From: a virus
Lineage: Duplodnaviria; Caudoviricetes
Direction: 5' to 3' (one strand)
Length of the DNA stretch: 45,600 bases
Virus record (IMG/VR): IMGVR_UViG_3300044724_000503
Location: 1 to 45,600 of that record
The translations under genes and the position numbers were made by a program. Under the pieces are notes generated by a model. The model searched no databases. It had not been told where the DNA came from and saw nothing but the letters and a program-made list of their open reading frames with translations. Within the stretch, counting starts at the first letter, position 1. Every line of letters begins with the position of its first letter. Positions 1-32,415 of this stretch are shown here, one piece after another.

Positions 1-94
1 GGGTAGATTTATTCACATGTTTTTCCATTGAGCCAAGGTTCAGGTTGCAAGATCCACAATTAAATTGTACAAAAACCGAAAGGAGTCCCGGGGC

Positions 95-505
95 GTGGAA
101 AAAATTTCAGTTGTAAATCCATTTGAGATGTTTGGACGTATGTGCGTGCTTCTTGATTCTGCGCCTCATTATCGTGAACAGAGCATCAAGAATCTTGGTT
201 TTAGGTTCATTCCTGCGATTGAGCATGGCAAGGTTCGTTATTACATGCGCGATGGTTCTTTGGTTGGGTTTTGCACATGGTGTTTTCTGACGGAGGAGGA
301 GGGACGCACTCAGAAATATAATGGCAGGGAGGTTTTTGCGCGGACGGATGGTGAACAGGCGTGGGTTATAGACATGGTAGCTACGGATAGTGTATCATAC
401 ATCGCAAAGGACATGCGCCGATTCATACCAGAGCATACTGGGCATCAGGTTGGACACTGGCGAAGACCAAGCGGTAGGAGATGTTATGCGCGGAATATTC
501 CCTGA
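95..505 (+). CDS. Toxin-activating lysine acyltransferase (HlyC/RtxC/TAAT family)-like protein
   Basis: Motif series SAPHY..IPAIEHGKVRYYMRDGSLVGFCTWCFLT..GEQAWVIDMVA parallels HlyC SSPLH..LPAI..YCSWA.LS..GDRKWFIDWIA. Start reassigned to GTG 95 (SD AAGGAG at 80-85). Confidence 0.8.
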   Translation: MEKISVVNPFEMFGRMCVLLDSAPHYREQSIKNLGFRFIPAIEHGKVRYYMRDGSLVGFCTWCFLTEEEGRTQKYNGREVFARTDGEQAWVIDMVATDSVSYIAKDMRRFIPEHTGHQVGHWRRPSGRRCYARNIP

Positions 506-2486
506 AACTAGGAAGCGTTGGACTGACGGTTTAGATTTTGGTGTTGAAGACACTCGCGATTATTATGAGCGCATGTATTGGTGTTTTGGTGGCGACAGTG
601 ACTCTGGTGGTAACACTGGTGGGTTTTCTGACGAGGATGTCGATCAGGACATGCAACAGGATATTGCTGCGGCATCTGTTGGTCTGGGGAAAGACGACTT
701 CGGATATTCTGCTGGTTTTGATCCTGGCAATTTGAGTGACGATCAACAAGCTGCTGTTGATGCATCGCGCTCTATTTCTGAGGCGGCGGCTCGTGGTCAG
801 GATGCGGTAAACGCGGCGCAGGCGGCGGCAAACGCTAGTCCGTCAGTATCACAGGCTCTTGCGAATTTATCTGGTATGACTGTCGGTGGATATGCGCCTG
901 GTCGAAGTCAAGCGGAAGCACGACAGCAGGCTATAGAACGGGCGTATGCAGTTGACAGGTACGGGAACCCCGTCACTACCAATCGAGGTAAAGGTAAACT
1001 TGGTAGGGGTTTTGACCCTGTTACTGGTCGCGCACCTACGGCGGCAGAGAAAACAGCGATACAGGCAGCGGCTGATATTGCGTTGGGTGAACAACAGGCT
1101 GCCACATCTAGTGCACCTAGTGACGCCAAAGCTGAAGAAACTTCTATTACTGGTATTCCAAGTCTTTCCGCTGTCCCTGATCAGTTTACTACTCCTGCTT
1201 TGAGCAATATTGGTCAGACAGTCTCTGAAGCTATAAACGCGGAGGATATATTAGGGTTCCCCGGTGAGTTGAGCACGCCTTCAAGTCCGGTTGCAGAGGC
1301 TCTGGCTGCGGACATCGCTCAACAAGCGGAACAACGCACTGCTGAACGAGCGGCTCAACAAGCGGACTTCATGGATACGCTTCAGTCCAACATATCCAAT
1401 GCCATTGCGGCTAAAGCTGGAACCCCGACACAGGCTTCTTCTTTACCTAGTTCTCCGTTTGGACAGGATGTAACTACTGAAAGTCTTCAAGCCGCTCAAG
1501 ACAATCTGAGTGCTAGAGCCGGACTAACAACGCAGGCAACAACTGATGCACCTGCTGATGTTGGTATAGCTTCATCTCCGTCAGTATCTGCGGCGGATGT
1601 TTTGGCCGGATCTCTTGACATAAGCAATCCTAATGAGATGGCAGCAGCAGAGAGAGCGGCTAGCGTCTCGGCTCCCGCATCTGCACCCGGTCAGCTTTCC
1701 GCCGCAGAAATGTCGGCTCTTGATGCATTGGCGGCTAGAGGTTTTGAGGATGAGACTGCTGCGATGGGTCTTCGTGCTGGTGACCTAACACCGGGTCAGA
1801 TCGCTGACAATGTTGCTGCAAACATAGGATATGATGACGTTGGTCTGCCTAGAGGTCTTGAGACTATCACAACCTCAAGGGGCGCAGATATCACAACGAA
1901 CCTAGCTGGCCTGACAAGAGAACAGGCAGAAAACCAACCACTTTCAATGGACATAGCACAGTTTATTGGATCTGACCCTTATGGTTATGAAGTTGATCCT
2001 GCGACAGGTCAGGTTGTTGGTCAGGTTGGAACCCCCGGTTTTGGTATATTAGGAGCTGCGACAGATTTTCTTCAGAACATGTTCCTAGGTCCACCGCAAA
2101 CTACTGAAGATCTTATTAATCGTGGAGTGTATACTGGAATGACGGGTGTAGGTGGTGACGGGATGATGGGTGACGGTCCTCCTGATGAGCCTGTTCAACA
2201 ACCTCCTACCACAGATCCATGTCCACCAGGGTACGCTCTAGTTGATGGTGTCTGTACACCTGTTAGTGCGGAAGAAGAAGCTGCGTTCAAGTTTGGTACG
2301 GACACAGAGGTCAGATACTTTGATCCATTTACACAGGCTACTCAGGTTGGTGGAGCAAATCCGTTTGTTCTTCAGCCATACAGACTCGGACAAAATCCAT
2401 TTGCGCAACCCACACAACAGGCTCCTGCTAGCACAGGTATTCAAGGCTTGTCACCTACTGGAGCGGCTCTAGGTAGAAGCATCTAA
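486..2486 (+). CDS. Large acidic Ala/Gln/Gly-rich low-complexity protein, putative virion/ejection-type protein and candidate acyltransferase substrate
   Basis: ATG 486 with AGGAG at 476-480, overlapping the acyltransferase end. Leader followed by YWCFGG, only 8 Lys, C-terminal CPPGYALVDGVC. TAATG-coupled to terL. Confidence 0.6.
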   Translation: MRGIFPETRKRWTDGLDFGVEDTRDYYERMYWCFGGDSDSGGNTGGFSDEDVDQDMQQDIAAASVGLGKDDFGYSAGFDPGNLSDDQQAAVDASRSISEAAARGQDAVNAAQAAANASPSVSQALANLSGMTVGGYAPGRSQAEARQQAIERAYAVDRYGNPVTTNRGKGKLGRGFDPVTGRAPTAAEKTAIQAAADIALGEQQAATSSAPSDAKAEETSITGIPSLSAVPDQFTTPALSNIGQTVSEAINAEDILGFPGELSTPSSPVAEALAADIAQQAEQRTAERAAQQADFMDTLQSNISNAIAAKAGTPTQASSLPSSPFGQDVTTESLQAAQDNLSARAGLTTQATTDAPADVGIASSPSVSAADVLAGSLDISNPNEMAAAERAASVSAPASAPGQLSAAEMSALDALAARGFEDETAAMGLRAGDLTPGQIADNVAANIGYDDVGLPRGLETITTSRGADITTNLAGLTREQAENQPLSMDIAQFIGSDPYGYEVDPATGQVVGQVGTPGFGILGAATDFLQNMFLGPPQTTEDLINRGVYTGMTGVGGDGMMGDGPPDEPVQQPPTTDPCPPGYALVDGVCTPVSAEEEAAFKFGTDTEVRYFDPFTQATQVGGANPFVLQPYRLGQNPFAQPTQQAPASTGIQGLSPTGAALGRSI

Positions 2487-3946
2487 TGAGTCTGGAGACA
2501 ATACCTGACGAAAAACTGAAAGAGATTTATGCTCTTCAGCAGGCAAAAGTTAGATTAGAGATACGCGAAAAGGCTCGCGATCACTTCATGCCGTTTGTGC
2601 ATCATGTGTATGACGGCTTTGTTGAGGGCAGGCATCATCGTATAATCGCGGAAAAGTTGGAGCGGGTAGCGAGGGGCGAGTTAAAACGTCTCATAGTTAA
2701 CATGCCTCCTCGACATAGTAAGTCGGAGTTTGCGTCATATTTGATGCCTTCGTGGTTCTTGGGGCGTAATCCCAAGTTAAAGATTATTCAAGCTACGCAT
2801 AATACTGAGCTTGCTGTGAGGTTTGGTCGTAAGGTTCGTGATTTGATTGACACACCGGATTACCGGATCGTGTTTCCCGATACCAGTCTCAAGGCAGATG
2901 ATAAAGCAGCAGGCCGCTGGGGTACTTCAGCAGGCGGGGAATATTTCGCGGCAGGGGTGGGAGCGGCGATGACTGGCCGTGGTGCGGACTTGTTGATCAT
3001 TGATGATCCGCACTCTGAGCAAGACGCCTTATCTTCTACTGCTTTCGACAATGCTTTTGAGTGGTATACGTCTGGTCCTCGCCAGCGTTTGCAGCCGGGT
3101 GGAGCGATTATCATCGTTATGACGCGGTGGGGCATGAAGGATCTGACGGGTCAGGTCTTGAAGATGCAGGGTTCTGACACTTTGGCGGATGAGTGGGAGG
3201 TTGTGGAGTTCCCAGCGATATTGCCGTCAGATAAGCCTTTATGGCCTGAGTTCTGGGATCACGACTCGCTGGTTAAGGTCAAGGCGTCTTTGCCTGTTGG
3301 CAAATGGAATGCACAGTGGCAGCAGAATCCGACAGCCGAAGAAGGGGCGATTGTCAAGAAGGAGTGGTGGAACACTTGGACGAAGGAGGAGATTCCATCG
3401 GTCAAGTACATCATTCAGTCTTATGACACTGCGTTCAGCAAGAAGGAGTCGGCTGACTACTCTGCGATTACAACGTGGGGTGTATTTGAGAACGAGGAGA
3501 CACGGGCTGACAATATTATACTTATGGATGCACGGCGTGGGCGTTGGAACTTTCCAGAGCTAAAAGCTGTGGCCAAGGAGGAGTATGAGTATTGGGAGCC
3601 GGACATGACGATCATTGAGGCGAAGGCGTCAGGTATGCCGTTGACTGATGAACTGCGTGCGACAGGCATTCCTGTTATGAACTATACACCAAGCAAAGGT
3701 CGTGATAAAGTGACTCGTATGCACACTGTGGCACCTTTGTTTGAGGCTGGTATGGTGTGGGCACCTGAAGAGAAGTTTTCGGATGAGGTGATTGAGGAGT
3801 GTCTAGCCTTCCCGCATGGGGAGCATGATGATTTTGTAGATAGCATGACCATGGCTCTGATACGTTTCCGGCAGGGTGGATTTATTACTTTGGACGGAGA
3901 AGATGAGGATCAGGACTGGTATCCTAAGAAGCGGGAGTATTACTAA
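2486..3946 (+). CDS. terL: Terminase large subunit
   Basis: Walker A-like NMPPRHSKS, Walker B LLIIDDPH, coupling motif VMTRW, nuclease SYDTA..ADYSA and HDDFVDS. Confidence 0.96.
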   Translation: MSLETIPDEKLKEIYALQQAKVRLEIREKARDHFMPFVHHVYDGFVEGRHHRIIAEKLERVARGELKRLIVNMPPRHSKSEFASYLMPSWFLGRNPKLKIIQATHNTELAVRFGRKVRDLIDTPDYRIVFPDTSLKADDKAAGRWGTSAGGEYFAAGVGAAMTGRGADLLIIDDPHSEQDALSSTAFDNAFEWYTSGPRQRLQPGGAIIIVMTRWGMKDLTGQVLKMQGSDTLADEWEVVEFPAILPSDKPLWPEFWDHDSLVKVKASLPVGKWNAQWQQNPTAEEGAIVKKEWWNTWTKEEIPSVKYIIQSYDTAFSKKESADYSAITTWGVFENEETRADNIILMDARRGRWNFPELKAVAKEEYEYWEPDMTIIEAKASGMPLTDELRATGIPVMNYTPSKGRDKVTRMHTVAPLFEAGMVWAPEEKFSDEVIEECLAFPHGEHDDFVDSMTMALIRFRQGGFITLDGEDEDQDWYPKKREYY

Positions 3947-4248
3947 TGACAGAAAAATTACCAAAAGGCACAGGTTATTCCGGCAGCACTGAAAAAGCCG
4001 CAAGGGCTGGTGATAAAGCCGCGATTAAACGTCTTCAAAAGGATCGTGACAAACTCAAGAGATCTGACGCTTTTGCCGAAAAGATTAGGAAGAGAGACGA
4101 TCTTACAGAAAAAGAAAAGATGCGTTTGATTCGTGAGGTAACGGAAAACATCAACACTGAGAACGAAGTAGCACTCAGTAAGGGTGGAACAGTAGAGTTT
4201 CGTAATGGCGGTAAAGTTTCACTAGGTAAATTTAAGGGTAATTTCTAA
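3946..4248 (+). CDS. Small basic protein with GGxV motifs and C-terminal FKGNF
   Basis: ORF coupled to both neighbours by TAATG; contains LSKGGTV and FRNGGKV. Confidence 0.7.
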   Translation: MTEKLPKGTGYSGSTEKAARAGDKAAIKRLQKDRDKLKRSDAFAEKIRKRDDLTEKEKMRLIREVTENINTENEVALSKGGTVEFRNGGKVSLGKFKGNF

Positions 4249-4409
4249 TGTCTAGTAAGAAAAAGCCCAAGGTTAAAAAGTTTGATCTTACGACTGCTTC
4301 TATTGAAGAGTTGGAACAGAAGATTGCGGAGCTTCGCGCAGAGAAAGAAGTCGTTACCAAATCTGGTGGTGGTTTAATCCGCAAGGGAACATTTAAAGGA
4401 ACATTCTAA
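4248..4409 (+). CDS. 53-aa protein missing from the ORF track (MSSKKKPKVKKFDL...GGGLIRKGTFKGTF)
   Basis: Fills the gap exactly with TAATG overlaps at both ends; C-terminus paralogous to the upstream gene. Confidence 0.8.
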   Translation: MSSKKKPKVKKFDLTTASIEELEQKIAELRAEKEVVTKSGGGLIRKGTFKGTF

Positions 4410-6883
4410 TGGCTATACCTCCACGCCCTATGGGTAGTTTAACGGATTCTGGTATTGAAGCCCCAGAAGGCATGAACATAGAAGTCCCACAGGTTGAGGA
4501 CTTTGCTGGTGGCGCGGAGGTCATGCAACAGCCGGACGGTAGTGCAATCATTCAGGCACTCATGGGCGGTGAAGCCGAGGGTATGGAAGTTCAAGCGGAG
4601 GCTTATGATCACGGAGCAAATTTAGCGGAGATTATTGATGAAGCAGTATTGGGTGAAATTTCAAGTGATTTGCGAGAAATGTATGAAGAAGACGTTGAGT
4701 CTCGCGAAGAGTGGAAAGAAGCATATACAAAAGGCCTTGACCTCTTGGGCATCCGATATCAAGAACGGACTCAGCCTTTTGAAGGAGCAAGTGGAGTCAC
4801 GCATCCGCTCATTGCTGAATCGGTAACACAGTTCCAAGCACAGTCCTATAAGGAACTTCTGCCTGCTGGCGGTCCTGTTCGTACACAGGTTATGGGACTC
4901 AAGAGTCCAGAAAAAGAAGCGCAGGCTGCTCGCGTCAAGAACTTCATGAATTACCAGATCACGGAAGTGATGGAAGAGTTTGATCCTGACACGGATCAGA
5001 TGCTGTTCTATTTACCGCTGTCTGGCTCTACTTTTAAGAAAGTTTATTTTGATCAGACTCGTGGTCGCGCTGTTTCTGCGTTTGTACCAGCCGAAGACTT
5101 GGTTGTTCCGTACTCGGCTACAGATCTGATGACATCTCCTCGTGTTACGCATGTTCTGCGTATGGATGAAAACAACTTGCGCAAAATGCAAGTAGCAGGG
5201 ATCTACCGCGATGTTGAGGTGTCCGCTGACAACGCAGACGATAACATTGTTAGAGACAAGGTTGATGAACTAGAGGGCATCAGTCGTAATTATTCAGAAG
5301 ATATTCACACCGTTCTTGAAATGCATGTTGATCTAGACCTCGAAGGTTTTGAAGACACAAACATGGAGGGTGTGCCTACTGGTATTAAGTTACCGTATAT
5401 TGTGGTCTTGGATCATGGGTCAGGTGAGATACTTTCAATCACTCGTAACTTTGATCAAGGCGATCAGCTAAAACGCAAGCGTCAATACTTTGTTCATTAC
5501 AAGTTTCTGCCGGGTCTAGGATTCTATGGCTTTGGTTTGATCCACATGATCGGCGGATTAGGTCGTGCAGCCACAAGTATATTGAGACAATTGATAGATG
5601 CTGGAACACTGGCCAATCTGCCATCTGGTTTCAAGGCTCGAGGTATTCGTGTCCGTAATGATGATGAACCTATCGCTCCTGGTGAGTTTAGAGATATTGA
5701 TGCACCGGGTGGTGACATTCGCAACTCAATTATACCTCTACCGTATAAAGAACCATCAGGCACGTTAGCACAATTGTTGGCGTCATTGATTGAAGGTGGT
5801 CGCCGTTTTGTATCCATCGCGGATCAGCAGATGGGTGAAAAGCAGAGTGGTGACATGCCTGTAGGCACAACTGTGGCACTGCTTGAGCGTGGTATGAAGG
5901 TTATGTCAGCCATCCATAAACGCTTGCATTACGCTCAGAAAACAGAGTTCCGGCTCCTCGCTAGAGTCTTTGCAGAAAATCTCCCTCCTGTGTATCCTTA
6001 CGAGGTAGCCGGAGCACCTTCTGAAGTGAAGGCACAGGATTTTGATGGTCGTGTGGATGTTATTCCTGTGTCCGACCCGAACATCTTCTCGATGTCACAG
6101 AGGGTTACTCTAGCGCAGACACAACTACAACTTGCGCAGTCTAACCCACAGATACATAACTTGTACGAAGCATATAAGCGTATGTATCAGGCTCTTGAAG
6201 TTCAAAACATTGACGAAATCTTGCCAGCCAAGAAGGAGCCGCAACCTACCAGTCCTAGTATTGAGAACGCAAAAGCCTTGCAGGGCGAGTTGATTACAGC
6301 CTTCCAAGAACAGGATCATGATGCGCATATTATGACGCATGTGACATTTATGAAACTACCATTGGTAGCGACTTCACCTAATATTTATGCTATATTTATG
6401 TCTCACCTTCAGGATCATATTTCTATGAAGGCACGTTTGACTGTTATGGCACAAGTACAGGAGCAACAGGCTCAAGCTCAACAGATGATGTTGGCGGCAC
6501 AAATGGGTGCTGTAGATCCTATGATGGCGCAACAGCAAATGCAGATGGCTGGTCAGATGTCGCCAGACGCAGTTGAAGCGGAAGTGGCCAGACTTGAGGC
6601 GCAGATTACACAAGAAGTTCTTGCGATGGTGGCACCACCGCAGGGTCAGCAAGATCCACTTGTAGCCATACGGCAACAGGAACTTGCTATCAAAGCAGCG
6701 GAATCTGAGCGCAGAGCGCAACAGGATGCCGCAGAGTTGGCTTTAGAACGTCAGAAACTCCAACAAAGAGCCATGACTGACGCAGCACGCATTGAACTCC
6801 AAGAGGAGATCGCTGAAGACAGAGCGGATGTAAACAGAGAGCGCATCCAGACTCAGAAGGAGCTAGCGTTACGAAATGGGTAA
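4409..6883 (+). CDS. Portal protein (P22-like, with Gln-rich C-terminal coiled-coil barrel)
   Basis: 824 aa after terL. Motifs GASGVTHPLIAE, LFYLPLSGSTFKKVY and PGLGFYGFGLIHMIG are typical of this portal group; long helical Q/M/A-rich tail. Confidence 0.9.
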   Translation: MAIPPRPMGSLTDSGIEAPEGMNIEVPQVEDFAGGAEVMQQPDGSAIIQALMGGEAEGMEVQAEAYDHGANLAEIIDEAVLGEISSDLREMYEEDVESREEWKEAYTKGLDLLGIRYQERTQPFEGASGVTHPLIAESVTQFQAQSYKELLPAGGPVRTQVMGLKSPEKEAQAARVKNFMNYQITEVMEEFDPDTDQMLFYLPLSGSTFKKVYFDQTRGRAVSAFVPAEDLVVPYSATDLMTSPRVTHVLRMDENNLRKMQVAGIYRDVEVSADNADDNIVRDKVDELEGISRNYSEDIHTVLEMHVDLDLEGFEDTNMEGVPTGIKLPYIVVLDHGSGEILSITRNFDQGDQLKRKRQYFVHYKFLPGLGFYGFGLIHMIGGLGRAATSILRQLIDAGTLANLPSGFKARGIRVRNDDEPIAPGEFRDIDAPGGDIRNSIIPLPYKEPSGTLAQLLASLIEGGRRFVSIADQQMGEKQSGDMPVGTTVALLERGMKVMSAIHKRLHYAQKTEFRLLARVFAENLPPVYPYEVAGAPSEVKAQDFDGRVDVIPVSDPNIFSMSQRVTLAQTQLQLAQSNPQIHNLYEAYKRMYQALEVQNIDEILPAKKEPQPTSPSIENAKALQGELITAFQEQDHDAHIMTHVTFMKLPLVATSPNIYAIFMSHLQDHISMKARLTVMAQVQEQQAQAQQMMLAAQMGAVDPMMAQQQMQMAGQMSPDAVEAEVARLEAQITQEVLAMVAPPQGQQDPLVAIRQQELAIKAAESERRAQQDAAELALERQKLQQRAMTDAARIELQEEIAEDRADVNRERIQTQKELALRNG

Positions 6884-7908: not shown

Positions 7909-8304
7909 ATGTTACAGGCTCTCATTGGCCCAGTTACTGGATTACTTGACAAGTTTATACCAGATGCAGATGAAAAGGCTCGGATCGCCCACGAGTTGGC
8001 CACGATGTCCGAAAAACATGCTCAACAACTCGCTCTCGCTCAAATTGAAGTGAACAAAGCAGAAGCCGCGTCAGGTTCTTTGTTTAAGGGCGGCTGGAGG
8101 CCAGCAGTTGGATGGGTCTGCGCAATTGCCTTCATGTATCACTTTATTTTGAAAGATCTAATTATATTTGGTGCATCATTTGCTGGGTATCAATTGCCTG
8201 AACTGCCTGATTTTGACATGGGGACGCTCTTAACTGTTCTCGGCGGAATGCTTGGAATCGGCTCCCTCAGAACCTACGAAAAGCAGAAAGGGCTTACCAA
8301 GTAG
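7909..8304 (+). CDS. Holin (3TM / GTA-type holin family)
   Basis: LLDKFIPD..QIEVNKAEAASGS.F.GGWRPAVGWVC..LLTVLGGMLGIG.LRTYEK pattern; strong SD. Confidence 0.85.
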   Translation: MLQALIGPVTGLLDKFIPDADEKARIAHELATMSEKHAQQLALAQIEVNKAEAASGSLFKGGWRPAVGWVCAIAFMYHFILKDLIIFGASFAGYQLPELPDFDMGTLLTVLGGMLGIGSLRTYEKQKGLTK

Positions 8305-8353: not shown

Positions 8354-8761
8354 ATGCCGTTTGAAGACTATAGTTCTAAACAGAAAAAGCTTGCTCGTGT
8401 AGCCGAGCCACGCGATGCAATCACTGGTGCAGATTTTGAAGCTCTACGCAACAGTAAAATGGGGGGTGGCATGGTTAAATATGCCGAGGGCGGAGATGTA
8501 CGCCGTGAAATGTTGATGCAACTTCTAGATGACGCTCGTGAAAACAATGATAAGGATAAGATCATTGAAATTGAAGCAGAACTTTTTCAAATGGGTGACG
8601 CTGAAGGCATGATGGGTGGCGGCATGGTTAAAGGCCGTGGCTACAAGTATGGTGGCAAAGTCAAAGGCATGTATCGCGGTGGCAGTTTAGGATCAAACCC
8701 AATGAAGGGTCGAGGTTGTGGTGCCGCAATGTCTGGTAAAGGTTTTAGTGGTACATTCTAA
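8354..8761 (+). CDS. Protein with five GGx[VML] repeats and C-terminal GRGCGAA..GFSGTF
   Basis: KMGGGMV, YAEGGDV, MMGGGMV, YKYGGKV, MYRGGSL. Confidence 0.75.
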   Translation: MPFEDYSSKQKKLARVAEPRDAITGADFEALRNSKMGGGMVKYAEGGDVRREMLMQLLDDARENNDKDKIIEIEAELFQMGDAEGMMGGGMVKGRGYKYGGKVKGMYRGGSLGSNPMKGRGCGAAMSGKGFSGTF

Positions 8762-9144: not shown

Positions 9145-9356
9145 TGGATGTTGCAGACTTCTCAAAACATGTTTATAAATTATTGACACAGCGCGAGGAA
9201 CAGATCGCGCTGATGTTAACATCTGGTGGAGTTCAGAACTTTGAACAATACCAGCGGCTGGTTGGCGAGGTTCAGGGCCTTGTCTATGCCAAAGAAGAAA
9301 TTAAATCCCTGCTGGAGAAAAATGTAGACGATGTCGAAGACTTTATACGTTCCTGA
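9144..9356 (+). CDS. Hypothetical protein preceding GroES
   Basis: Coupled ORF, predicted helical (YQRLVGEVQGL). Confidence 0.75.
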   Translation: MDVADFSKHVYKLLTQREEQIALMLTSGGVQNFEQYQRLVGEVQGLVYAKEEIKSLLEKNVDDVEDFIRS

Positions 9357-9801
9357 CCATGTCGCAGCAAGAGTCAATAAGAAACCCGAAACATCTGTAG
9401 ATAGTGCATATGTTGAAGAGGGTAAACGAGTATTAGACCCTTCCCTTTTAGATAAATCATTAAAAGAGCGTCTCCCACAACCAACTGGTTGGAGGATTCT
9501 TGTCATGCCATATCAAGGCAAGGCAAAGACTGAAGGTGGAATTATTATTCCCAACGAAACTCGTGAACGAGAGGCTTTAGCGACAGTTGTTGCTTACGTC
9601 TTAAAATTAGGGCCTCTTGCGTATCAAGATCCAAATAAATTTGGAGATAATGCTGATCCTTGGTGTCAAGAAGGTCAGTGGGTTTGTATTGGTAGGTATG
9701 CAGGCTCCAGATTTAAGATAGATGGAGGAGAAGTTCGCATCATCAACGATGACGAAGTTATCGCCACTATTCTAGAACCTGATGACGTAAAACAAGTTTA
9801 G
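9331..9801 (+). CDS. groES: Co-chaperonin GroES (Cpn10)-like protein
   Basis: PTGWRILV..KTEGGIIIP mobile loop..GP..GRYAGS..IDGGEVRIINDDEVIA. Confidence 0.92.
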   Translation: MSKTLYVPDHVAARVNKKPETSVDSAYVEEGKRVLDPSLLDKSLKERLPQPTGWRILVMPYQGKAKTEGGIIIPNETREREALATVVAYVLKLGPLAYQDPNKFGDNADPWCQEGQWVCIGRYAGSRFKIDGGEVRIINDDEVIATILEPDDVKQV

Positions 9802-21620: not shown

Positions 21621-22118
21621 ATGGCACTTTCTAAGATAACAAATGATGGTGTAACTGGGCTGTCTATTGATAGCAGCGGTCGGATGCTGACGCCTGCTAG
21701 GCCAGCATTTAGGGTAAAATTTGATGCAGACACCTCCGCCATAAATATATCTACAATCCAAACATTAGACTTCAACACATATGGCTCTGTTGATTTTGAT
21801 ATTGGAAGCAACTTTGTTTTAGCAAGCAATAAGTTTGTAGCCCCGATTTCTGGTTTATATCAAATTGATTCACAAGTTGTAATTCAGAGTGCTGAAGCGT
21901 CTACTGGTGTTTATATTTATGTCAATATAAATGGAACAGATACTCGTGCAGGGGAAATAAACGACCCGCAAGGCGGTGGATATGCTTCAACAAGATATTC
22001 TGGGTTGTTTAATCTAACGGCAAATGATGAAATCCTGATAAGGGTTAGAACAATATCAGATACATCTGTCACTCTTAGGGGTGATGGCACAGATTTTAGC
22101 GGATATTTAGTAGGATAA
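21621..22118 (+). CDS. C1q/TNF-like domain fibre or spike protein
   Basis: PAFRV..F..V.FDIGSNF....KFVAPISGLYQ...FSGYLVG C1q pattern. Confidence 0.75.
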   Translation: MALSKITNDGVTGLSIDSSGRMLTPARPAFRVKFDADTSAINISTIQTLDFNTYGSVDFDIGSNFVLASNKFVAPISGLYQIDSQVVIQSAEASTGVYIYVNINGTDTRAGEINDPQGGGYASTRYSGLFNLTANDEILIRVRTISDTSVTLRGDGTDFSGYLVG

Positions 22119-22122
22119 CGAT

Positions 22123-22203
22123 ATGGCATACATAGGCAAATCCCCAACAGGAACTGGCGTAAGGTGCAGCCTAGATGATGTAGTCTGGCCGGAGAAACCA
22201 TAA
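22123..22203 (+). pseudogene. 26-aa fusion remnant (MAYIGKSPTGTGVR-CSLDDVVWPEKP) of a deleted fibre-plus-chaperone module
   Basis: First 14 aa match the start of 23500 (MPYIGKSPTGSGVR) at 12/14. The remainder resembles a chaperone C-terminus (WPxxP). TAATG-coupled to the next gene. Confidence 0.75.
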
Positions 22204-23315
22204 TGACACAAGCACGTGATTTAGCAGATTTGGCAGGGGCGGCAACCGCTGGCACGATTACAGGTCGCAACATGGTTATCAATGGGGCGATGACTGTGGC
22301 ACAGCGGGGAAGCTTAACAGGCCAAACAGGAACTGTTTACACGGCTTGTGACAGGTTTCTTAGTGCTGAAGTGGGTGATACTGTTACAACTTCAACACAA
22401 GATACTGATGTACCGTCTGGGCAAGGATTTGCAAATTCATTAAAAATTGATGTGACAACAGCAGATGCTAGTTTAGCGGCTTCTGATGTTTTCCTTGTTA
22501 TGACAAGACTAGAAGGGCAAGATTTACAGCATTTGCTTTATGGCACTAGCGGTGCAAAAGATTTGACTATTAGTTTTTGGGTAAAGTCGCCAAAGACGGG
22601 AACTCATATTCTTGAACTGCGCCATAATGATGCAACCTATTTTAATTCTCAAGCATACACTATTACATCTGCAAACACTTGGCAGAAAGTAGAACTTACA
22701 TTTAGTGGGTACACAGCTACAGCGTTTGACAATGACAATGCGTATAGTTTGGGTATTACTTGGTTTTTAGCGGCTGGTAGTGATTACACAAGTGGCACAT
22801 TATCTTCAAACACTTGGCACAATACAGGGGCTAATCGTGCAGTTGGTCAGGTTAATTGTGTTGATGATGCGGCTAATAACTTCTACCTCACAGGCGTTCA
22901 GCTTGAAGTAGGCTCAACTGCCACGCCGTTTGAACACGAGGATTACGGTACTACGCTTGCGAAGTGTCAGCGTTATTATTACAAGATAATAAAAAATGAC
23001 GGAACTGTAACTTACTTTGGTACAGGTTATCATAAAAACACTACTCAAAGTCGTATTGTTTGTGATTTGCCTGTACCCATGAGGATAAAACCTACTGCTC
23101 TTGAACAGACTGGTACGGCTGGAGAGTACGCAACTTTTGAAGGTGGTACACAAGTAACTTGTACAGTAGTCCCAACGTACACCACTTATGGCACTGAATT
23201 TCGTCAAATAGTGCAATTTACATCTAGTGGACTTGTTACTGGCGGTGCTGGTGATGGTAGAACAAAAGATGTATCGGACGGAACAGTGTATTTAGCTTGG
23301 AGTGCTGAACTATGA
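22203..23315 (+). CDS. Tail fibre / carbohydrate-binding-like protein (paralog of 24833)
   Basis: ARDLADL..RNMVINGAMTVAQRG..DRF..TGVQLEVG..FEHEDYGTTLAKCQRYY. Confidence 0.75.
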   Translation: MTQARDLADLAGAATAGTITGRNMVINGAMTVAQRGSLTGQTGTVYTACDRFLSAEVGDTVTTSTQDTDVPSGQGFANSLKIDVTTADASLAASDVFLVMTRLEGQDLQHLLYGTSGAKDLTISFWVKSPKTGTHILELRHNDATYFNSQAYTITSANTWQKVELTFSGYTATAFDNDNAYSLGITWFLAAGSDYTSGTLSSNTWHNTGANRAVGQVNCVDDAANNFYLTGVQLEVGSTATPFEHEDYGTTLAKCQRYYYKIIKNDGTVTYFGTGYHKNTTQSRIVCDLPVPMRIKPTALEQTGTAGEYATFEGGTQVTCTVVPTYTTYGTEFRQIVQFTSSGLVTGGAGDGRTKDVSDGTVYLAWSAEL

Positions 23316-23500
23316 GTTATTCGTTCATGTTTACAGATGATGATGGTTCTCACATTTACATTAGAGATGACCAGAAAAGAACTTGCATTGGGATTGATGC
23401 AGAGTTTCAACAATGGCTTCGTGACAATCAGGACAATCTGCCTGATGACATCCAAGCCAAGATTGATGCTGGCGACTTAACTATTGAGGATGCAAACTAA
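23312..23500 (+). CDS. Small fibre partner protein (ends AGDLTIEDAN)
   Basis: Coupled on both sides; C-terminus similar to 25850. Confidence 0.7.
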   Translation: MSYSFMFTDDDGSHIYIRDDQKRTCIGIDAEFQQWLRDNQDNLPDDIQAKIDAGDLTIEDAN

Positions 23501-24600
23501 TGCCATACATAGGTAAATCCCCAACAGGGTCTGGTGTACGCACTAGATATTACTTTACCGCTACTGGCGGCGAAACATCACTTTCTGGTGCAGATGATGG
23601 TGGCAAGACGCTCACCTTCTCTGATGGAGAGTATGTAGACGTATACCTAAACGGGATTGCCCTCGTAGCTGGCACTGACTATGGCACGGCTACAGCGAAC
23701 ACCATCAGCGGTCTTGCTGCACTATCTACTAACGACATTGTAGAGGTTGTTGTCTACGACATTTACAACGTAGCCAAGATTAACAGCGAAGCGGTTCGCA
23801 CACGCCATTACTATACAGCCACAGGTGGTGAGACATCTATTGGCACCGCGCAGATCCCCGGCCTGTCTTTTCCCGGCGGCACAGAGATTGAGGTTAGCCT
23901 CAACGGTATTTCACTTGTGGCTGGCACAGATTACAACACAACAGCCGCAAACACTGTAGGCGGTCTGTCCGCACTCTCTGCTGGCAACGTCATTGAGATT
24001 ATTATCTATGACAAGTTCCAGCTTGCTGACACCGTGAGCAAGGCTCAAGGCGGCACGTTTAGTGGTGCAATTACAGCTAATAGTGGTTTGAATGTAGGCA
24101 CAATCAAAGAGGCTACTGGCACGACTACGGCCATGACTATTGATAGTAGTGGTCAGGTACTTTTGTCTGCCATACCATATATAAGAATGAAATCTACAGG
24201 CACTGTAAGCGTAAATTTAAGTACTTCCTTGGCAGTTCCATTTAATAATGTAATTGCCTCAAGGGGTATAACACTAAATACCTCAACTTATAAATTTCAG
24301 GTTCCAGTTACGGGGTTGTATCATTTTTCTGGAGCGGTGCGTTGGAACAGAGCAGCAAGTACTTATGTTTGGTGGAGAGTGGATGACGGAACTGGCACTG
24401 CTGTTCAAGATTCGTCGTTAGTTTTGAATGGGATGCACAATGCTACTGGTAATACCTTTGTTACCTCCGCTGGTGCATTTCTCTGTCCACTGACTGCATC
24501 AACCGACTATCAAATAAGTCTTGGTGACGGTTCAACTAGCACAGCGGTCGTTGAATCTAACCAAACCTTTATGGCGATTTATTTAGTGGGGGCTAGTTAG
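23500..24600 (+). CDS. Tail fibre with duplicated anchor domain and C1q-like head
   Basis: Two copies of RxxYxxTATGGET..V.LNGI.LVAGTDY..GL.ALS; FQVPVTGLYHFS head. Confidence 0.75.
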   Translation: MPYIGKSPTGSGVRTRYYFTATGGETSLSGADDGGKTLTFSDGEYVDVYLNGIALVAGTDYGTATANTISGLAALSTNDIVEVVVYDIYNVAKINSEAVRTRHYYTATGGETSIGTAQIPGLSFPGGTEIEVSLNGISLVAGTDYNTTAANTVGGLSALSAGNVIEIIIYDKFQLADTVSKAQGGTFSGAITANSGLNVGTIKEATGTTTAMTIDSSGQVLLSAIPYIRMKSTGTVSVNLSTSLAVPFNNVIASRGITLNTSTYKFQVPVTGLYHFSGAVRWNRAASTYVWWRVDDGTGTAVQDSSLVLNGMHNATGNTFVTSAGAFLCPLTASTDYQISLGDGSTSTAVVESNQTFMAIYLVGAS

Positions 24601-24602
24601 AT

Positions 24603-24836
24603 ATGGCAAACTATAAAAATATTGAATATCGTCAACCTTTGGAAACTGATGTTGATGCAAAAACAACAGCCACGTTGATATTGCAAGCATCAGATTGGAC
24701 ACAGCTACCAGACAGCGGCCTTACATCAGACTGCGTTGCGGCGTTTGCCACCTATCGTGCAAGCATCCGCACCATCAGACAAACAAACCCTGATAATCCA
24801 ACTTGGCCTGATGCGCCTACGGAGGAGTGGTCATGA
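24603..24836 (+). CDS. Tail fibre assembly chaperone
   Basis: L.ASDWTQLPDS..FATYRASIR.I..PTWPDAP motif. Confidence 0.8.
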   Translation: MANYKNIEYRQPLETDVDAKTTATLILQASDWTQLPDSGLTSDCVAAFATYRASIRTIRQTNPDNPTWPDAPTEEWS

Positions 24837-25849
24837 GCAGAGCCAGAGACTTAGCAGACTTAGGTGGCAGCGCAGATGCGGGTGTACTGACAGGCCGCAA
24901 CCTCATCATCAATGGAGGCATGTCTGTCGCACAAAGAGGCACGTCAAGCACTTCAGCAGGAATAAACTCAGTAGATAGGTGGAATGCGGCTTTTGGCGGC
25001 TCTGGGGCTGCTGTCACACAATCGCAAGAAAGTCTGAGTTCAAGTGATGCCCCATATGCTTTAGGACTTAGAAACTATTTCAGGTCAACAGTTACAGGCA
25101 CTTCTACTGATACTGGTGCTTATCATCAAATTCTACAGTATGTAGAAGCACAAAATATGGCTCAAAGTGGTTGGAACTTTACTTCTACTAGTTCTTATAT
25201 AACGGTTTCATTTTGGGTTCGTTCAAGTCTTGCTGGTACCTATACAGTTTATTTTCAAAGCAAAGATGGTACTGAGCAAGTATATGCTCACGAATTTACC
25301 CTCAGTGCTAATACTTGGACAAAAGTAACTGAAACAATGCCGGGAAATTTAAATATTACCATAAACAATGATAATGGTCAGGGGCTACTTGTTGATGTAT
25401 TGGCACATTTTGGCACTGATTACACGACATCTGGAAGTACAACAAATGCTTGGAAGACAAACGATAGCGCAGATATCACCAAAGACTATGCTCAAAACTG
25501 GTTAAATACTTCTGGCGCAACTTTTGATTTGACTGGCTTTCAGCTTGAGGTAGGCACTACTGCAACAGACTTTGAACACGAGGACTACGGCACTACGCTT
25601 GCAAAGTGTCAGCGGTATTATTTTCAATACGATGGTATCATTTATGGACAAGATTACGGCGGTGTTTATACATTGGGTTCTGTTAATAACCCCGTAACAA
25701 TGAGGGCGCAACCCACTTACTCAGCAAGTGCAAACCCTAGTTCATTTACGCTAACCCCCAGTGGCAAATCTTTGGGTTGGATTATTCAGACTTCAGCACC
25801 CGACATATCAAACGGGGTTACTAATCTTGCAGGAACTGCGGAGTTATAA
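24833..25849 (+). CDS. Tail fibre / carbohydrate-binding-like protein (paralog of 22203)
   Basis: ATG 24833 (ATGA overlap); RNLIINGGMSVAQRG..DRW..QLEVG..FEHEDYGTTLAKCQRYY. Confidence 0.75.
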   Translation: MSRARDLADLGGSADAGVLTGRNLIINGGMSVAQRGTSSTSAGINSVDRWNAAFGGSGAAVTQSQESLSSSDAPYALGLRNYFRSTVTGTSTDTGAYHQILQYVEAQNMAQSGWNFTSTSSYITVSFWVRSSLAGTYTVYFQSKDGTEQVYAHEFTLSANTWTKVTETMPGNLNITINNDNGQGLLVDVLAHFGTDYTTSGSTTNAWKTNDSADITKDYAQNWLNTSGATFDLTGFQLEVGTTATDFEHEDYGTTLAKCQRYYFQYDGIIYGQDYGGVYTLGSVNNPVTMRAQPTYSASANPSSFTLTPSGKSLGWIIQTSAPDISNGVTNLAGTAEL

Positions 25850-28294: not shown

Positions 28295-28518
28295 GTAGAG
28301 AACTTGTACCTCCACGGTTTCCTTTAGCTCCTGAAGAGTATGATAGGCAATACTTTGATGAGATGGTTCGCTCATTAACGCAACTTGTGATACAATTACA
28401 AAACCCTGGTGAGTTGCGGGGCACAAAGATTACGCTTACCGACCTCCCGACCTCTGCAACTGGACTTGAGAGCGGAGCGTTGTATAATGACAGTGGAACT
28501 GTTAAGGTAGTGACATGA
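28291..28518 (+). CDS. Small tail protein
   Basis: PLAPEEYD..LPTSATGL..GALYND.GTVKV. Confidence 0.7.
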   Translation: MSRELVPPRFPLAPEEYDRQYFDEMVRSLTQLVIQLQNPGELRGTKITLTDLPTSATGLESGALYNDSGTVKVVT

Positions 28519-29336
28519 AGCTAAAAGATTTACTTCCTATCGCTGGTGCCGCTGCTGGGTATTTTCTCGGTGGTCCTGCTGGCAGTGCCGCCATCAATGC
28601 CGCACTTGGTTCTGGTATCGGTACACTTGTTGCTGGTGGTGACGCAAAGGACGCTATAAAAAACGCTATTCTAGCTGGTGGCGCAGGTGCGGGACTCGGT
28701 GCTCTTGGAGTACAAGGTGCTGGTGCTGCGCAAGCCGCTGGAGCCGCTGGAGCCGCTGGTGGTCAGGCTGTATACCAAGATGCTATTATGCGAGAAGCTA
28801 GTAAAAAAACTGCTGAAGAAGCGATTAAAAAACAAGCAATGCAGCAAGCGGCAAAGAGCGGGATTCTCGGCTCTGGCATCTCGGTTGGTGATGTGGTTGT
28901 TGGGAGTTCCTTACTCAGCCTAGCTGGTGTAGGTGATGAAGAGGTTAAAGACGAAGAATTTGATCCAAGAGATCTTGAGTCTGCACCAGACTATGAAGGT
29001 CAGCTTATTGGCGGTTTATTCGTGGATCCTGACACTGGAATTGCTTATGACACGATAGAAGAACTTGAGGAAGCTGTAAGCAAGAATAAGGAGTTCGCGG
29101 TTGGCGGGATTATAACTCTTAATCAGGGTGGTTTGATAGAAGGCCCAGGCACTGGAACATCGGATGATGTTAAGGCTGGCATTTATCAAAATGGAAGAAA
29201 AGTTCAGGAAGCAAGGCTTTCGGACGAAGAATTTGTTATGACCAAAAAGGCTGTCACAGGCGCAGGTAATGGCGATCCTAAATTAGGTGCCAAACGAATG
29301 TACGCCATGATGGACAAGTTTGAGAGGATGGCATAA
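28515..29336 (+). CDS. Putative ejection / DNA-transfer protein with Gly-zipper hydrophobic N-terminus
   Basis: GxxxG-rich helices; C-terminal GGLIEGPGTGTSD..RLSDEEFV. Confidence 0.6.
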   Translation: MKLKDLLPIAGAAAGYFLGGPAGSAAINAALGSGIGTLVAGGDAKDAIKNAILAGGAGAGLGALGVQGAGAAQAAGAAGAAGGQAVYQDAIMREASKKTAEEAIKKQAMQQAAKSGILGSGISVGDVVVGSSLLSLAGVGDEEVKDEEFDPRDLESAPDYEGQLIGGLFVDPDTGIAYDTIEELEEAVSKNKEFAVGGIITLNQGGLIEGPGTGTSDDVKAGIYQNGRKVQEARLSDEEFVMTKKAVTGAGNGDPKLGAKRMYAMMDKFERMA

Positions 29337-30223
29337 TGGCTGAAACAGTACGCAGCGAGTCACTTACCCTACTACCAGAATATCAGGAGAAGTTTCTTAA
29401 AGATCTCTTAGCCAGCACTCAAACGCTTGGTGGTCAAGCGACAACGATCCCAGCGTATCAAGTTGCGCCTATGACGGACGCTCAACAGGAAGCAATTGAG
29501 TTGGGTGTATCTGGCATTGGGGCATATCAGCCTATGATGCAGGCTGGGGCCTACACCTTGGGTCAGGGCGTAAGTCAATTGTTGCCCGGAGCCTACCAGC
29601 AATATATGTCTCCGTATACTTCTGAAGTCATTGATCAGAGCATGATGGATCTTCAGCGTCAGGCAGACATGGAGCGTAAGCGTATTGGTGATGCCGCCAT
29701 ACAGTCTGGTGCCTTTGGTGGATCACGCCAAGCCGTAGCTGAACAGGAGCTACAGCGCAACACAGCGGACGCTTTTGCCCGTCAATCAGCACAGCTTCGA
29801 GCACAGGCGTTTGAGTCGGCGCAAGACAGATCACAACAGGCTGGTGAGTTGTTTGGTAAGCTAGGTCTACAACAGGCGGCACTAGGTGAATCAGCCCAAG
29901 GCGCACAGGCCAGAGATGTACAGCTTCTGTCACAGTTGGGCGGTATGGAACAACAGCAACAACAAGCTGAGTTGGAAGCACAGAGAGCCACGGATCTTGA
30001 ACGCCAGTACGAGCCGTTTCAACGGATTGGTTTCATGTCTGACATCTTCCGTGGTGTGCCGTCTACTACAAGTACAATTCAATCAAGCACATCTCCGAGT
30101 CCTAGCACCCTGTCTCAGGTCGCAGGTTTGGGTATGGGTATTGCGGGTCTTAATCAAGCTGGAGCGTTTGGTCAGGGCGGTATCTTTGGTGGTATTGGGA
30201 ATATGCTTGGGTTTGGTAGCTAA
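29336..30223 (+). CDS. Putative ejection / DNA-transfer protein
   Basis: Gln/Ala-rich with YMSPY..V and GAFGGSR motifs; Gly-rich hydrophobic C-terminus. Confidence 0.65.
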   Translation: MAETVRSESLTLLPEYQEKFLKDLLASTQTLGGQATTIPAYQVAPMTDAQQEAIELGVSGIGAYQPMMQAGAYTLGQGVSQLLPGAYQQYMSPYTSEVIDQSMMDLQRQADMERKRIGDAAIQSGAFGGSRQAVAEQELQRNTADAFARQSAQLRAQAFESAQDRSQQAGELFGKLGLQQAALGESAQGAQARDVQLLSQLGGMEQQQQQAELEAQRATDLERQYEPFQRIGFMSDIFRGVPSTTSTIQSSTSPSPSTLSQVAGLGMGIAGLNQAGAFGQGGIFGGIGNMLGFGS

Positions 30224-32406
30224 TGAGCAACGTGTATAACAGAAAAATGTTTCGTCAGCGCAATGCGCGAAACGCTTTGAATCAATCGGCTGGTGTAGCT
30301 CCTGTTCAGAAGTTTAACACAGGTGGTCAGGTGTTTGCGCCTAGACCACGAAATGTATTTTCTTCTCCTTTAACAAATAAAAGTTTTAGAGGAACAATAC
30401 CAAGCGGTAGCGGTATCACAAGCTTACAGCCTCTAAATATTGCTCGTAGATTTATAACAAGTGGTCGTAATGTAGGATACGGTGACGGTGCAGGGATTAG
30501 CCCCGGTGAGTACGCTGTGTTGCAAGCAGCACAGAGCCGTTATCTAACGGGTCAAGCAATGAAAGACCCTACAGACACTAGGATCGGTGGAGCGATCACT
30601 GAAGCTTTGCGTGTTCCAGCAGAAGCGGCGGCTGGTAGTGGAGCGTTTATTGGTAGTTTAGCAAATCAAGGCATACAATCATTGCTGTCTTCGCCGAAAG
30701 GAGCAGGCACAGATAGCTTTGGACAACGCATGGCTGGTATGAAGCCGGGGGCACTTGATCCTAGCTTCTTGGCCAGCATGGGCATAAATGAAATTGATCC
30801 TACTGCCTACAGTGCTCCAATAGGACCTCAGCCAAAAGTGCCTACTCCTACAGGCGTAGCGGCAAAGTCTACAGGTATTTCACCTACAGGCGTACCGTCT
30901 GCACCAAATATTCCAGCAGATGAGCGTATGGCTCGTGATCAACAAATTCGTCAAGCGCAAGATATTACTGCACAAGGTGGCATGTATGTTACAGACGAAG
31001 AGACTGGAGCTTTCCCAGCAAGTGTAGATGCGCAAGAAGACGCCTTGAGAAACTTAACTGATAGTCTTGTGCCCGGTGCTGGAGGCGAGGGTGCAGACGC
31101 TGGTGACGATCTTGTGGAAACAAAACCAACCATTGATGATGCTGGCGAGGATGATGCCACACCAAGCACAGGTACAGGCACAGGTACGCAAGAAGGTTCT
31201 GGTGTTACGGGCGCAGCAGACACTAAAGAAGAAATTGATCGTGTCATAAACAGTGGCACCAAAGAAGAACAAGAGAAAACACTAGATTCGTTTATTAAAG
31301 AGTTTATGGACAAAGCTCCCGGTTACGAAGGTGCTGACAGTGGTCTTGTCCTTGCCAAGATTGGTTTTGCCATGGCCGCAGGTAAAAGTCCTCGCGCTAT
31401 TGAGAATATTTCAAAAGCGTTAAGTGATGGCGCAGACATGCTGATTAAGGACAAGAATAAAAAATCTGAATTTGATCGTCAGTTAAAGCTGTCTGCCTTG
31501 CAGTATGGATTGAGCGAAACTGGTAAGTTGAGAGCACAAGAAAGACTTGATGATCGTAATTTCTTAAATTTAGTAGATAAGAATGGGAAACCTGCCCGAA
31601 TAAGCATGACAGAACTGTTGGCAAATGATGGTAAAATCCCAGAGGGTTTACTAGATAAAGATGTGTTCTTAGCTCAAGAAAAAGCAGCTACAGAAAGAAT
31701 TAAAAATATCAATGCGCAAACTGCGGCATTAAGAAAAGAACTTGTGCTTTCAGACACAGCGGCAAAAGATATCCAAGAAAGTTATGGTAAAGCTGCAAAA
31801 CGATACATTGATGCTGAAGTCGGCATTGAGTTTACAGAAAAAGCACTATTGAATATAGCAGACGATGGATCAGTCACGGGTTTAAAAGGTTCAGTTAAAG
31901 ACTTAGCAAATAAACTTGCTAACGCTGGTGGTTTTGACCTTGGTACAAAATATCAAACTAAAGCTGATTTTGAAAAGAATGTTCGGATGGCTTTTCAAAA
32001 ACTAATTCCTGTTTCACTCGCGGGAGTTCAGTCAGCTAACTCTATCTCAAATAAAGATGTTCAATTCTTGGCAGATGCATATATTGATTCAGCGATATTA
32101 GAAGGCGGAGCGTTTAGCTTGGCCATGATTGATGAAGATGTTCTAGCCAGCAAGTTACAAGGTGTCGTTAGTGAGTTTAGAAGAAATCAAGCTACAGCAG
32201 CAGGTGATATGAGAGGCATCGAAGATCGTTTGACTGGTAGAATACTTCCGGGTCAAGGAGAAGGTTCTGCGGCGACACTTCTCGCTCAATCTAAAAAAGC
32301 ACTTGAACCGTTTGGTATTGGTCAAAGAACTTCTTTAGGTTTGGTTGATACTGGTCAGAAAAACGCTCAAGGCATGCCTATATTTAAACTACCATCGGCT
32401 GGATAG
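30223..32406 (+). CDS. Large internal virion (ejection) protein
   Basis: 727 aa; VYNRKMF..FNTGGQV N-terminus, low-complexity middle and helical C-terminal half. Confidence 0.6.
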   Translation: MSNVYNRKMFRQRNARNALNQSAGVAPVQKFNTGGQVFAPRPRNVFSSPLTNKSFRGTIPSGSGITSLQPLNIARRFITSGRNVGYGDGAGISPGEYAVLQAAQSRYLTGQAMKDPTDTRIGGAITEALRVPAEAAAGSGAFIGSLANQGIQSLLSSPKGAGTDSFGQRMAGMKPGALDPSFLASMGINEIDPTAYSAPIGPQPKVPTPTGVAAKSTGISPTGVPSAPNIPADERMARDQQIRQAQDITAQGGMYVTDEETGAFPASVDAQEDALRNLTDSLVPGAGGEGADAGDDLVETKPTIDDAGEDDATPSTGTGTGTQEGSGVTGAADTKEEIDRVINSGTKEEQEKTLDSFIKEFMDKAPGYEGADSGLVLAKIGFAMAAGKSPRAIENISKALSDGADMLIKDKNKKSEFDRQLKLSALQYGLSETGKLRAQERLDDRNFLNLVDKNGKPARISMTELLANDGKIPEGLLDKDVFLAQEKAATERIKNINAQTAALRKELVLSDTAAKDIQESYGKAAKRYIDAEVGIEFTEKALLNIADDGSVTGLKGSVKDLANKLANAGGFDLGTKYQTKADFEKNVRMAFQKLIPVSLAGVQSANSISNKDVQFLADAYIDSAILEGGAFSLAMIDEDVLASKLQGVVSEFRRNQATAAGDMRGIEDRLTGRILPGQGEGSAATLLAQSKKALEPFGIGQRTSLGLVDTGQKNAQGMPIFKLPSAG

Positions 32407-32415
32407 GAGAGCGTC

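Follow-up and report, generated by a model that had tools for sequence, protein, structure and literature searches.

A HlyC-family acyltransferase encoded next to a putative virion protein in a marine phage, and the N-terminal glycine of its neighbor as a candidate acceptor

We propose that a phage-encoded acyltransferase of the HlyC/TAAT family transfers a fatty acyl chain, probably from host acyl-ACP, to the α-amine of the first Gly of its neighboring gene product, a putative virion protein. Based on the comparison of related loci, we give this reading a probability of roughly 45%. As judged from the sequences, what is conserved in the partner protein is not a Lys but a Gly, located either at the N-terminus itself or behind a leader that masks it. 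The DNA under study, referred to here as the window, is the whole of a virus record of 45,600 bases with an estimated completeness of ~79%, found in estuary and marine metagenomes. The best cultured matches of its terminase large subunit (terL) are HTVC023P-type phages (55-61% identity), and a Pfam scan revealed that it encodes PolA, a helicase and GroES. By its terL affinity and gene content, the source may be an HTVC023P-like marine phage.

The acyltransferase gene (95..505, + strand, as are all features described here) encodes 136 residues from a GTG start, which is preceded at 9 nt by a Shine-Dalgarno-like AGGAG (81..85) and is also the residue at which the homologues start. It overlaps by 20 nt the partner gene (486..2486), which encodes 666 residues from an ATG start and has its AGGAG ribosome-binding site (476..480) within the acyltransferase gene, as do related loci with similar sites. 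The partner stop overlaps the start of terL (2486..3946) at position 2486, within a TAATG. On the same strand, 3′ of terL, the morphogenesis operon continues with the portal (4409..6883), GroES, capsid, tail and ejection-type genes. The initial annotation, made from the sequence, had described a HlyC/TAAT-like gene overlapping the start of an acidic 666-aa protein that is itself joined to terL, and both junctions are as it described. The overlap is an observed feature, and translational coupling of the acyltransferase and its partner is likely.

This order of acyltransferase, partner and terL is retained in 13 close viral loci of sufficient length among the matches listed, in all five of the listed P0065-clade loci (of six), where the acyltransferase is 31% identical to that of the window, and in L110, the sole P0111-clade locus that reaches that far. 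Four cultured HTVC023P-type phages have no such pair before terL. The annotation had also reported the absence of RTX repeats and of a type I secretion system (T1SS), and this was confirmed: the nonapeptide pattern GGxGxDx[LIVF] has 0 matches in the six frames of the window, and no T1SS components were identified among the 47 window ORFs scanned against Pfam and PHROGs, in a record that is ~79% complete. An RTX operon is thereby ruled out. An artefact or a pseudogene is ruled out as well, by the homologues (42 close ones were found for the acyltransferase), by selection and by an independent contig from another public run, which spans positions 18-786 including the overlap with zero differences. 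The acyltransferase gene is under purifying selection, with dN values of 0.065-0.18 against dS values of 0.81-3.4 in 10/10 pairwise comparisons.

Family membership and fold, which the annotation had proposed to check, both came out in its favor. ORF 95-505 matches the Pfam HlyC family (PF02794) with an E-value of 1e-11 and 45.2 bits, over a cut-off of 25, and its sole sequence match in the PDB is ApxC (E 2e-8). The AF2 model (pLDDT 91) adopts the TAAT fold, and ApxC is its best Foldseek match (E 8e-8, TMq 0.75). The next best match has an E-value of 3.8e-3, and these next matches are GNAT acetyltransferases. In a viral structure library, the top matches are uncultured-phage proteins, one of them named HlyC. 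Searches of cultured phages by tblastn with the window TAAT, P0070 and P0054 returned no match, the bacterial genomes scanned yielded one weak 28-residue match, and P0070 was not found in viral contigs.

The acyltransferase has the profile, the fold and the Asp of PF02794, and the catalytic His of the His/Asp dyad is missing. Asp93 (371-373) aligns with the Asp of the ApxC WFIDW motif, and both Asp93 and Arg124 (464-466) are found in 44/44 distinct clade members. The column of the catalytic His of ApxC (SPLH) is occupied by Tyr26 (170-172), and the ApxC Asn column by Arg37 (203-205), each invariant in the 44 clade members. The annotation had cautioned that SPLH reads APHY in this protein while the Asp is kept. 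The Asp does hold, but the His of APHY is not the equivalent of the catalytic His, which aligns with Tyr26. A shifted catalytic role of this residue, His25, is ruled out, because the position is variable across the clade (W 15, F 13, H 6 and L 4 are among the commonest of the 44). A study of CdiC and ApxC proposed the Asp as the base and found mutants of the His to be still partly active (PMC8510554). Activity of the phage enzyme is plausible because the residue that it keeps is the proposed base and the one that it lacks is partly dispensable in these two enzymes. We consider it highly probable that the phage enzyme is active.

Among the phage clades sampled, an Asp or Glu is retained in the catalytic column in all except one. 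In this exceptional P0111 clade, Lys replaces the Asp in 6/6 members, and the gene and its partner are still kept. Another possibility would be that the protein transfers a short acyl group, such as acetyl, to the partner N-terminus, or acts as a non-catalytic chaperone, with a role in protection or assembly rather than in membrane anchoring. The Tyr and Arg in the His and Asn columns are consistent with such a role, as are the P0111 clade, the GNAT acetyltransferases that follow ApxC in the fold search, and the exchange of the TAAT slot with a GNAT gene in DSL-LC06 (described below). However, the protein is a TAAT by both fold and sequence and not a generic GNAT (E 8e-8 vs 3.8e-3), and the acidic residue is present in every other clade sampled. 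We therefore regard a short acyl group or a chaperone as unlikely, and a fatty acyltransferase as the preferred assignment.

The partner protein is acidic, rich in Ala, Gly, Asp, Ser and Thr, and predicted to be disordered. It has no strongly hydrophobic segment (the best 19-residue mean is 1.16) and no family match in Pfam, PHROGs or NCBIfam, and its Atlas model has a pLDDT of 0.40, with Atlas feature matches of at most 0.78. We found 15 homologues, and among the 13 sequences aligned the conservation lies mainly in the C-terminal third; a DPCPPG...C motif is located at about 2214-2255 and a SPTGAALG motif at the terminus. Two homologues, P0054 and P0058, are without the conserved N-terminus. 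A profile of the partner family, compared with 14 proteins near terL in the four cultured HTVC023P-type phages, yielded nothing convincing; its best match, with an E-value of 0.003, is composition-biased. The partner is likely a virion protein, and no virion proteomics was found in the literature for these proteins.

The annotation had proposed Gly-Lys dipeptides of the partner as the acylation sites. Its counts are correct, since the partner has eight Lys residues (1.2%, against an average of 5.1% for 48 genes of the window), three of them in Gly-Lys, with RGKGKLG at 984-1004. The proposed role of Gly-Lys as a conserved acceptor, however, is ruled out by the comparison of related partners. 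Our survey comprised 91 loci, including the window, 85 of which include the whole TAAT end and an ATG downstream of it, and contained 52 full-length partners, or 36 in a non-redundant set below 85% identity. Gly-Lys is absent from 12/36 of these representatives. The best Lys column of the alignments reaches 15/33 in the window clade and 15/30 in the CRP-235 clade, whereas the acceptor Lys of CdiA is conserved in 14/15 sequences (PMC8510554). Partners with one or two Lys residues carry them at unrelated positions (93 in L008, 26 in L004, 502 and 554 in L038). The mature part contains just one Lys in L004, L008 and L081, and L008 does not share its site with the other two. The CRP-235 protein gp29 has four Lys and no Gly-Lys, and one relative has 1 Lys in 424 aa.

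These observations bear on the reading closest to known TAATs, in which a Lys inside the partner, within Gly-Lys or free of context, receives the fatty acyl chain, as with HlyC and CdiC, and the Gly tract at the N-terminus is a packaging or processing signal. The characterized TAATs of the literature cited, as far as its accessible parts go, are all lysyl acyltransferases, and the Lys modified by CdiC lies outside Gly-Lys. None of the 36 representative partners is devoid of Lys, Gly-Lys shows a mild overall enrichment (50/239 Lys observed vs 30.6 expected, or ~1.6-fold), the L022-L029 partners repeat G[GD]KGG, and the scarcity of Lys could itself serve specificity. Against this, the partners without Gly-Lys, the unrelated sites of the Lys-poor partners and the poorly conserved Lys columns make an internal Lys acceptor, in our view, rather unlikely.

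The N-terminus of the partner displays a different picture. In the window, a conserved 34-aa leader ending in Cys-Phe (486..587), the removal of which is predicted, is followed by Gly35 and a Gly/Ser/Asp tract (588..635), the predicted mature N-terminus and proposed acyl acceptor. Among 82 downstream genes scored, from loci that are partly redundant and with L028, L089 and L090 set aside as exceptions, 41 start with Met-Gly, 38 have a leader ending in [LC][FI] before a Gly, two start with MSDKGGGG and one is cut by the contig end. The leaders are 17-36 aa long and conserved, with the Gly in the same register after the leader end, which in the window is Phe34. All window-clade partners of at least 60 aa could be classified, with 31 distinct types having a leader and 18 lacking one. 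When the two classes were aligned, the leader Phe was best matched to the initiator Met, with a mean score of 15.8 at offset 0 and 10.8 at +1. Offset 0 was the best for 18/31 leader types and the others ranged from +1 to +4, within the Gly tract; this register scan is partly circular, because the search pattern itself partly required a Gly after the leader. The leader is absent in the sister clade of the window group, where the partners start with Met-Gly (support 0.955 for this leaderless group). In the same FastTree phylogeny of 49 TAATs, the leader state changes twice, against a mean of 16.5 for shuffled states, clade members being kin and these two changes being the only ones on the tree. 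Thus, the two registers and the tree suggest that the leader is gained or lost without loss of the Gly start.

The linkage to a downstream partner, which the annotation had suggested surveying in related phages, is conserved across the loci surveyed, and overlap or abutment with the partner gene is kept for TAATs that are about 21-31% identical to that of the window. The next gene starts with Met-Gly in 6/6 members of the P0065 clade, 7/9 of the L022 clade, 31/35 of the CRP-235 clade (the other four with Met-Ser) and 80/80 of the HTVC112P clade, as compared to a background of 12/182 ORF starts and 1/48 window genes; these tallies represent four clades and not independent counts. The downstream proteins are mutually unrelated. 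In HTVC112P, HTVC026P and HTVC111P, the TAAT is located immediately 5′ of a J-like tail protein, and in CRP-235 it precedes gp29, which sits in the structural module; neither is related to the window's partner. In L029 and L103, the TAAT lies amid tail and ejection-type genes, by weak family matches. Gly is not universal at these starts. The first residue is Asn in three, Ser in two and Gly in one of the six P0105-clade partners, Asn in the P0062 pair, and Asp or Glu in the P0111 clade. The invariant feature in general may therefore be a Gly/Ser/Asp tract with a free N-terminus rather than Gly itself. Conversely, the J-like protein of HTVC202P starts with Met-Gly in a genome without a HlyC gene, which means that Met-Gly can occur independently of a TAAT.

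The lack of relationship among the downstream proteins could also mean that the target is a host protein or another phage protein, and that the linkage reflects co-expression in a late operon. The TAAT of HTVC103P is found among early/replication genes, and that of L028 follows a portal-like gene; neither of them has a Gly-tract partner, and L089 and L090 likewise lack one. Nevertheless, overlap or abutment persists at the low identities given above, and the unrelated downstream proteins have the N-terminal feature in common. We consider a target elsewhere to be quite improbable and the neighboring gene product to be very likely the substrate of the enzyme. Given an active enzyme and this substrate, the α-amine is probably the acceptor.

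The TAAT slot itself seems to be exchangeable. Orthologues of CRP-235 gp29 in CRP-738, CRP-3 and CRP-212 have a leader ending in Phe before a [GK]GGG tract, and these phages carry a non-HlyC gene in the slot. The slot gene of CRP-738 is a ‘putative acyltransferase’ in GenBank, and the slot-gene assignment stands on that one name and on unnamed PHROG matches. In DSL-LC06, the slot is occupied by a Pfam GNAT. Relatives of the TAAT locus thus appear to place other putative acyltransferases in the same position. If the slot is indeed exchangeable with GNAT-type genes, the small genes that lie ahead of the first ejection protein in P22- and T7-like phages may perform a related job. In P22, gene 14 precedes gene 7, and in T7, gene 13 precedes gene 14, so that, as in the window, a small gene lies directly before the protein in question, here the first ejection protein. 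P22 gp14 (DUF2824) and T7 gp13 (PF11090) are not of the HlyC family, and we take both to have the GNAT fold; no report of acylation by either was found.

There are also differences from these pairs. The window's partner has no match to the P22 gp7 or T7 gp14 families and is located before terL, far from the window's own ejection-type genes at 28515-35634; placement within an ejection-type cluster is seen in distant TAAT clades only. P22 gp7 has a 20-aa leader that is removed by the host OpdA, exposing a Lys/Gly-rich start; this leader is largely dispensable, since the burst remains at about 60% when it is deleted (PMC8402733). The mature N-terminus of gp7 was sequenceable in that account, and is therefore at least partly unblocked, which counts against a lipid-cap analogy.

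Based on these comparisons, the following mechanism can be proposed for acylation of the N-terminal Gly. The overlapping genes would be translated in a coupled fashion. The acceptor Gly would then be freed, either by host Met removal in the leaderless relatives or by leader cleavage after Phe34 in the window phage. For this cleavage, suggested by the two registers, the protease may be a host enzyme, as for P22 gp7. Asp93, the conservation of which is observed, would act as the base. An α-amine would need less activation than a Lys side chain, which could explain the acceptance of Tyr in the His column. Finally, once capped with the lipid, the disordered protein would be packaged, and its chain would anchor it in the host envelope at infection. 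Alternatively, the chain may guide the protein to the membrane or assembly site during morphogenesis. Packaging and a membrane role are the least supported step of the mechanism. A broader proposal is that tailed marine phages possess an N-myristoylation-like system, in which a TAAT that has shifted from Lys to α-amine chemistry uses host acyl-ACP to lipid-cap virion proteins of the tail or ejection type at their N-terminal Gly, once Met or the leader has been removed. This is more doubtful than N-terminal acylation of the partner, because it further requires that the donor be a long-chain acyl-ACP and that the product act at a membrane.

The window TAAT shares with the RTX enzymes HlyC, CyaC, RtxC and ApxC (PF02794; PDB 4WHN) the family, the fold, the catalytic Asp and a gene beside the presumed substrate. 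It differs from them by the Tyr in the His column, the Arg in the Asn column and its phage origin, and its system by the lack of RTX repeats, of a T1SS and of a conserved partner Lys, with the α-amine as the predicted acceptor. The fatty acylation of an exposed N-terminal amine for membrane engagement is familiar from eukaryotic viruses, whose entry proteins can be N-myristoylated, and from bacterial peptides that are acylated N-terminally in an ACP-dependent manner following leader removal, although the enzyme families of both differ from the TAATs. A related case is CdiC of the class IV CDI systems, a TAAT that lipidates a non-RTX neighbor for bacterial envelope engagement. Both dyad residues are present in CdiC, and its acceptor is an internal Lys that is conserved and does not form part of a Gly-Lys motif (PMC8510554). 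CdiC is bacterial and its substrate is secreted, whereas the window TAAT is phage-encoded.

With CdiC, there is already a TAAT known to act on a non-RTX protein. HlyC genes of phages have also been annotated before, in GenBank for CRP-235 gp30, HTVC112P, HTVC026P, HTVC111P, HTVC103P and HTVC104P, and as PHROG 20210; these belong to clades distant from that of the window, their partners are unrelated, and most of them precede a Met-Gly protein of a structural module. A phage HlyC is named once, in a figure legend, in the accessible part of a pelagiphage preprint (bioRxiv 2019.12.14.876532). In the literature searched, with most subscription papers and all supplements outside its scope, we found neither a functional account of these genes nor any description of virion proteins of tailed phages being fatty-acylated by an enzyme. 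If the proposed modification is true, TAATs would use a kind of acceptor new to the family, phages would have their own counterpart of N-myristoylation, and the small genes preceding ejection proteins would gain a testable role; it would also bear on the manner in which short-tailed phages anchor their ejected proteins in the host envelope. A phage group related to the window phage has been reported, in the same preprint, to exceed all other known groups in abundance in marine viromes (bioRxiv 2019.12.14.876532). Cultured systems make a direct test possible, namely CRP-235 and HTVC112P, the latter with HTVC202P as a natural control.

Close to its C-terminus, the acidic partner protein encoded beside the window's toxin-activating acyltransferase (TAAT) carries a conserved two-cysteine motif, DPCPPG-x-C (window 2214-2255), which is also found in the partners from the P0065 clade, a distant TAAT clade with 31% identity. 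This motif could possibly be a small disulfide hairpin. Another short motif, H/Y-[VI]-T-P-x-E...G, was observed by eye in the protein encoded 5' of the TAAT gene at viral locus L029 (L029:4013-5647), as well as within some partner homologues, namely the L036 partner and P0054 and P0058, two homologues lacking the partner-type N-terminus. Its presence in both the L029 upstream protein and the partner homologues suggests that putative internal virion proteins exchange domains by shuffling.

The TAAT-like genes of the P0111 clade (loci L110-L115) have the catalytic Asp replaced by Lys. The genes 3' of them encode very large acidic proteins, of 1550 to over 2000 aa, in which a leader is followed by a [DE][ST]NG start; in L110, terL comes after the large acidic protein gene. 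At L103:4884-7815, two small modifier-like genes occur in tandem, each followed by a gene for a short ejection-type protein. One is a phrog_308 gene, located 5' of an MCGGGG protein; the other is a TAAT with intact His/Asp, located 5' of an acidic protein. A T7 gp14-like gene (weak match) lies 3' of both pairs. In phage HTVC103P, the TAAT gp34 (L119:6923-7372) resides amid early and replication genes, with no neighbour bearing a Gly-tract, and is possibly aimed at a host protein.

Several late proteins of the window (3946-4409, 8354-8761, 28515-29336 and 30223-32406) share a repeated [FYML]xxGGx[IVA] motif. This pattern, picked post hoc, gave 17 matches across the 48 window genes, versus a shuffled mean of 4.1 and maximum of 11. 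It is also present in proteins encoded 3' of terL in HTVC027P, 023Pt_psg01 and DSL-LC04, and likewise in P0054 and P0058. The motif may represent a maturation-protease or packaging signal in this phage group.

The head module of the window also includes a GTA-type three-helix holin (7909-8304) and a GroES co-chaperonin (9331-9801), and at 21621-25849 two C1q/TNF-like proteins are interleaved with a pair of related tail-fibre proteins.
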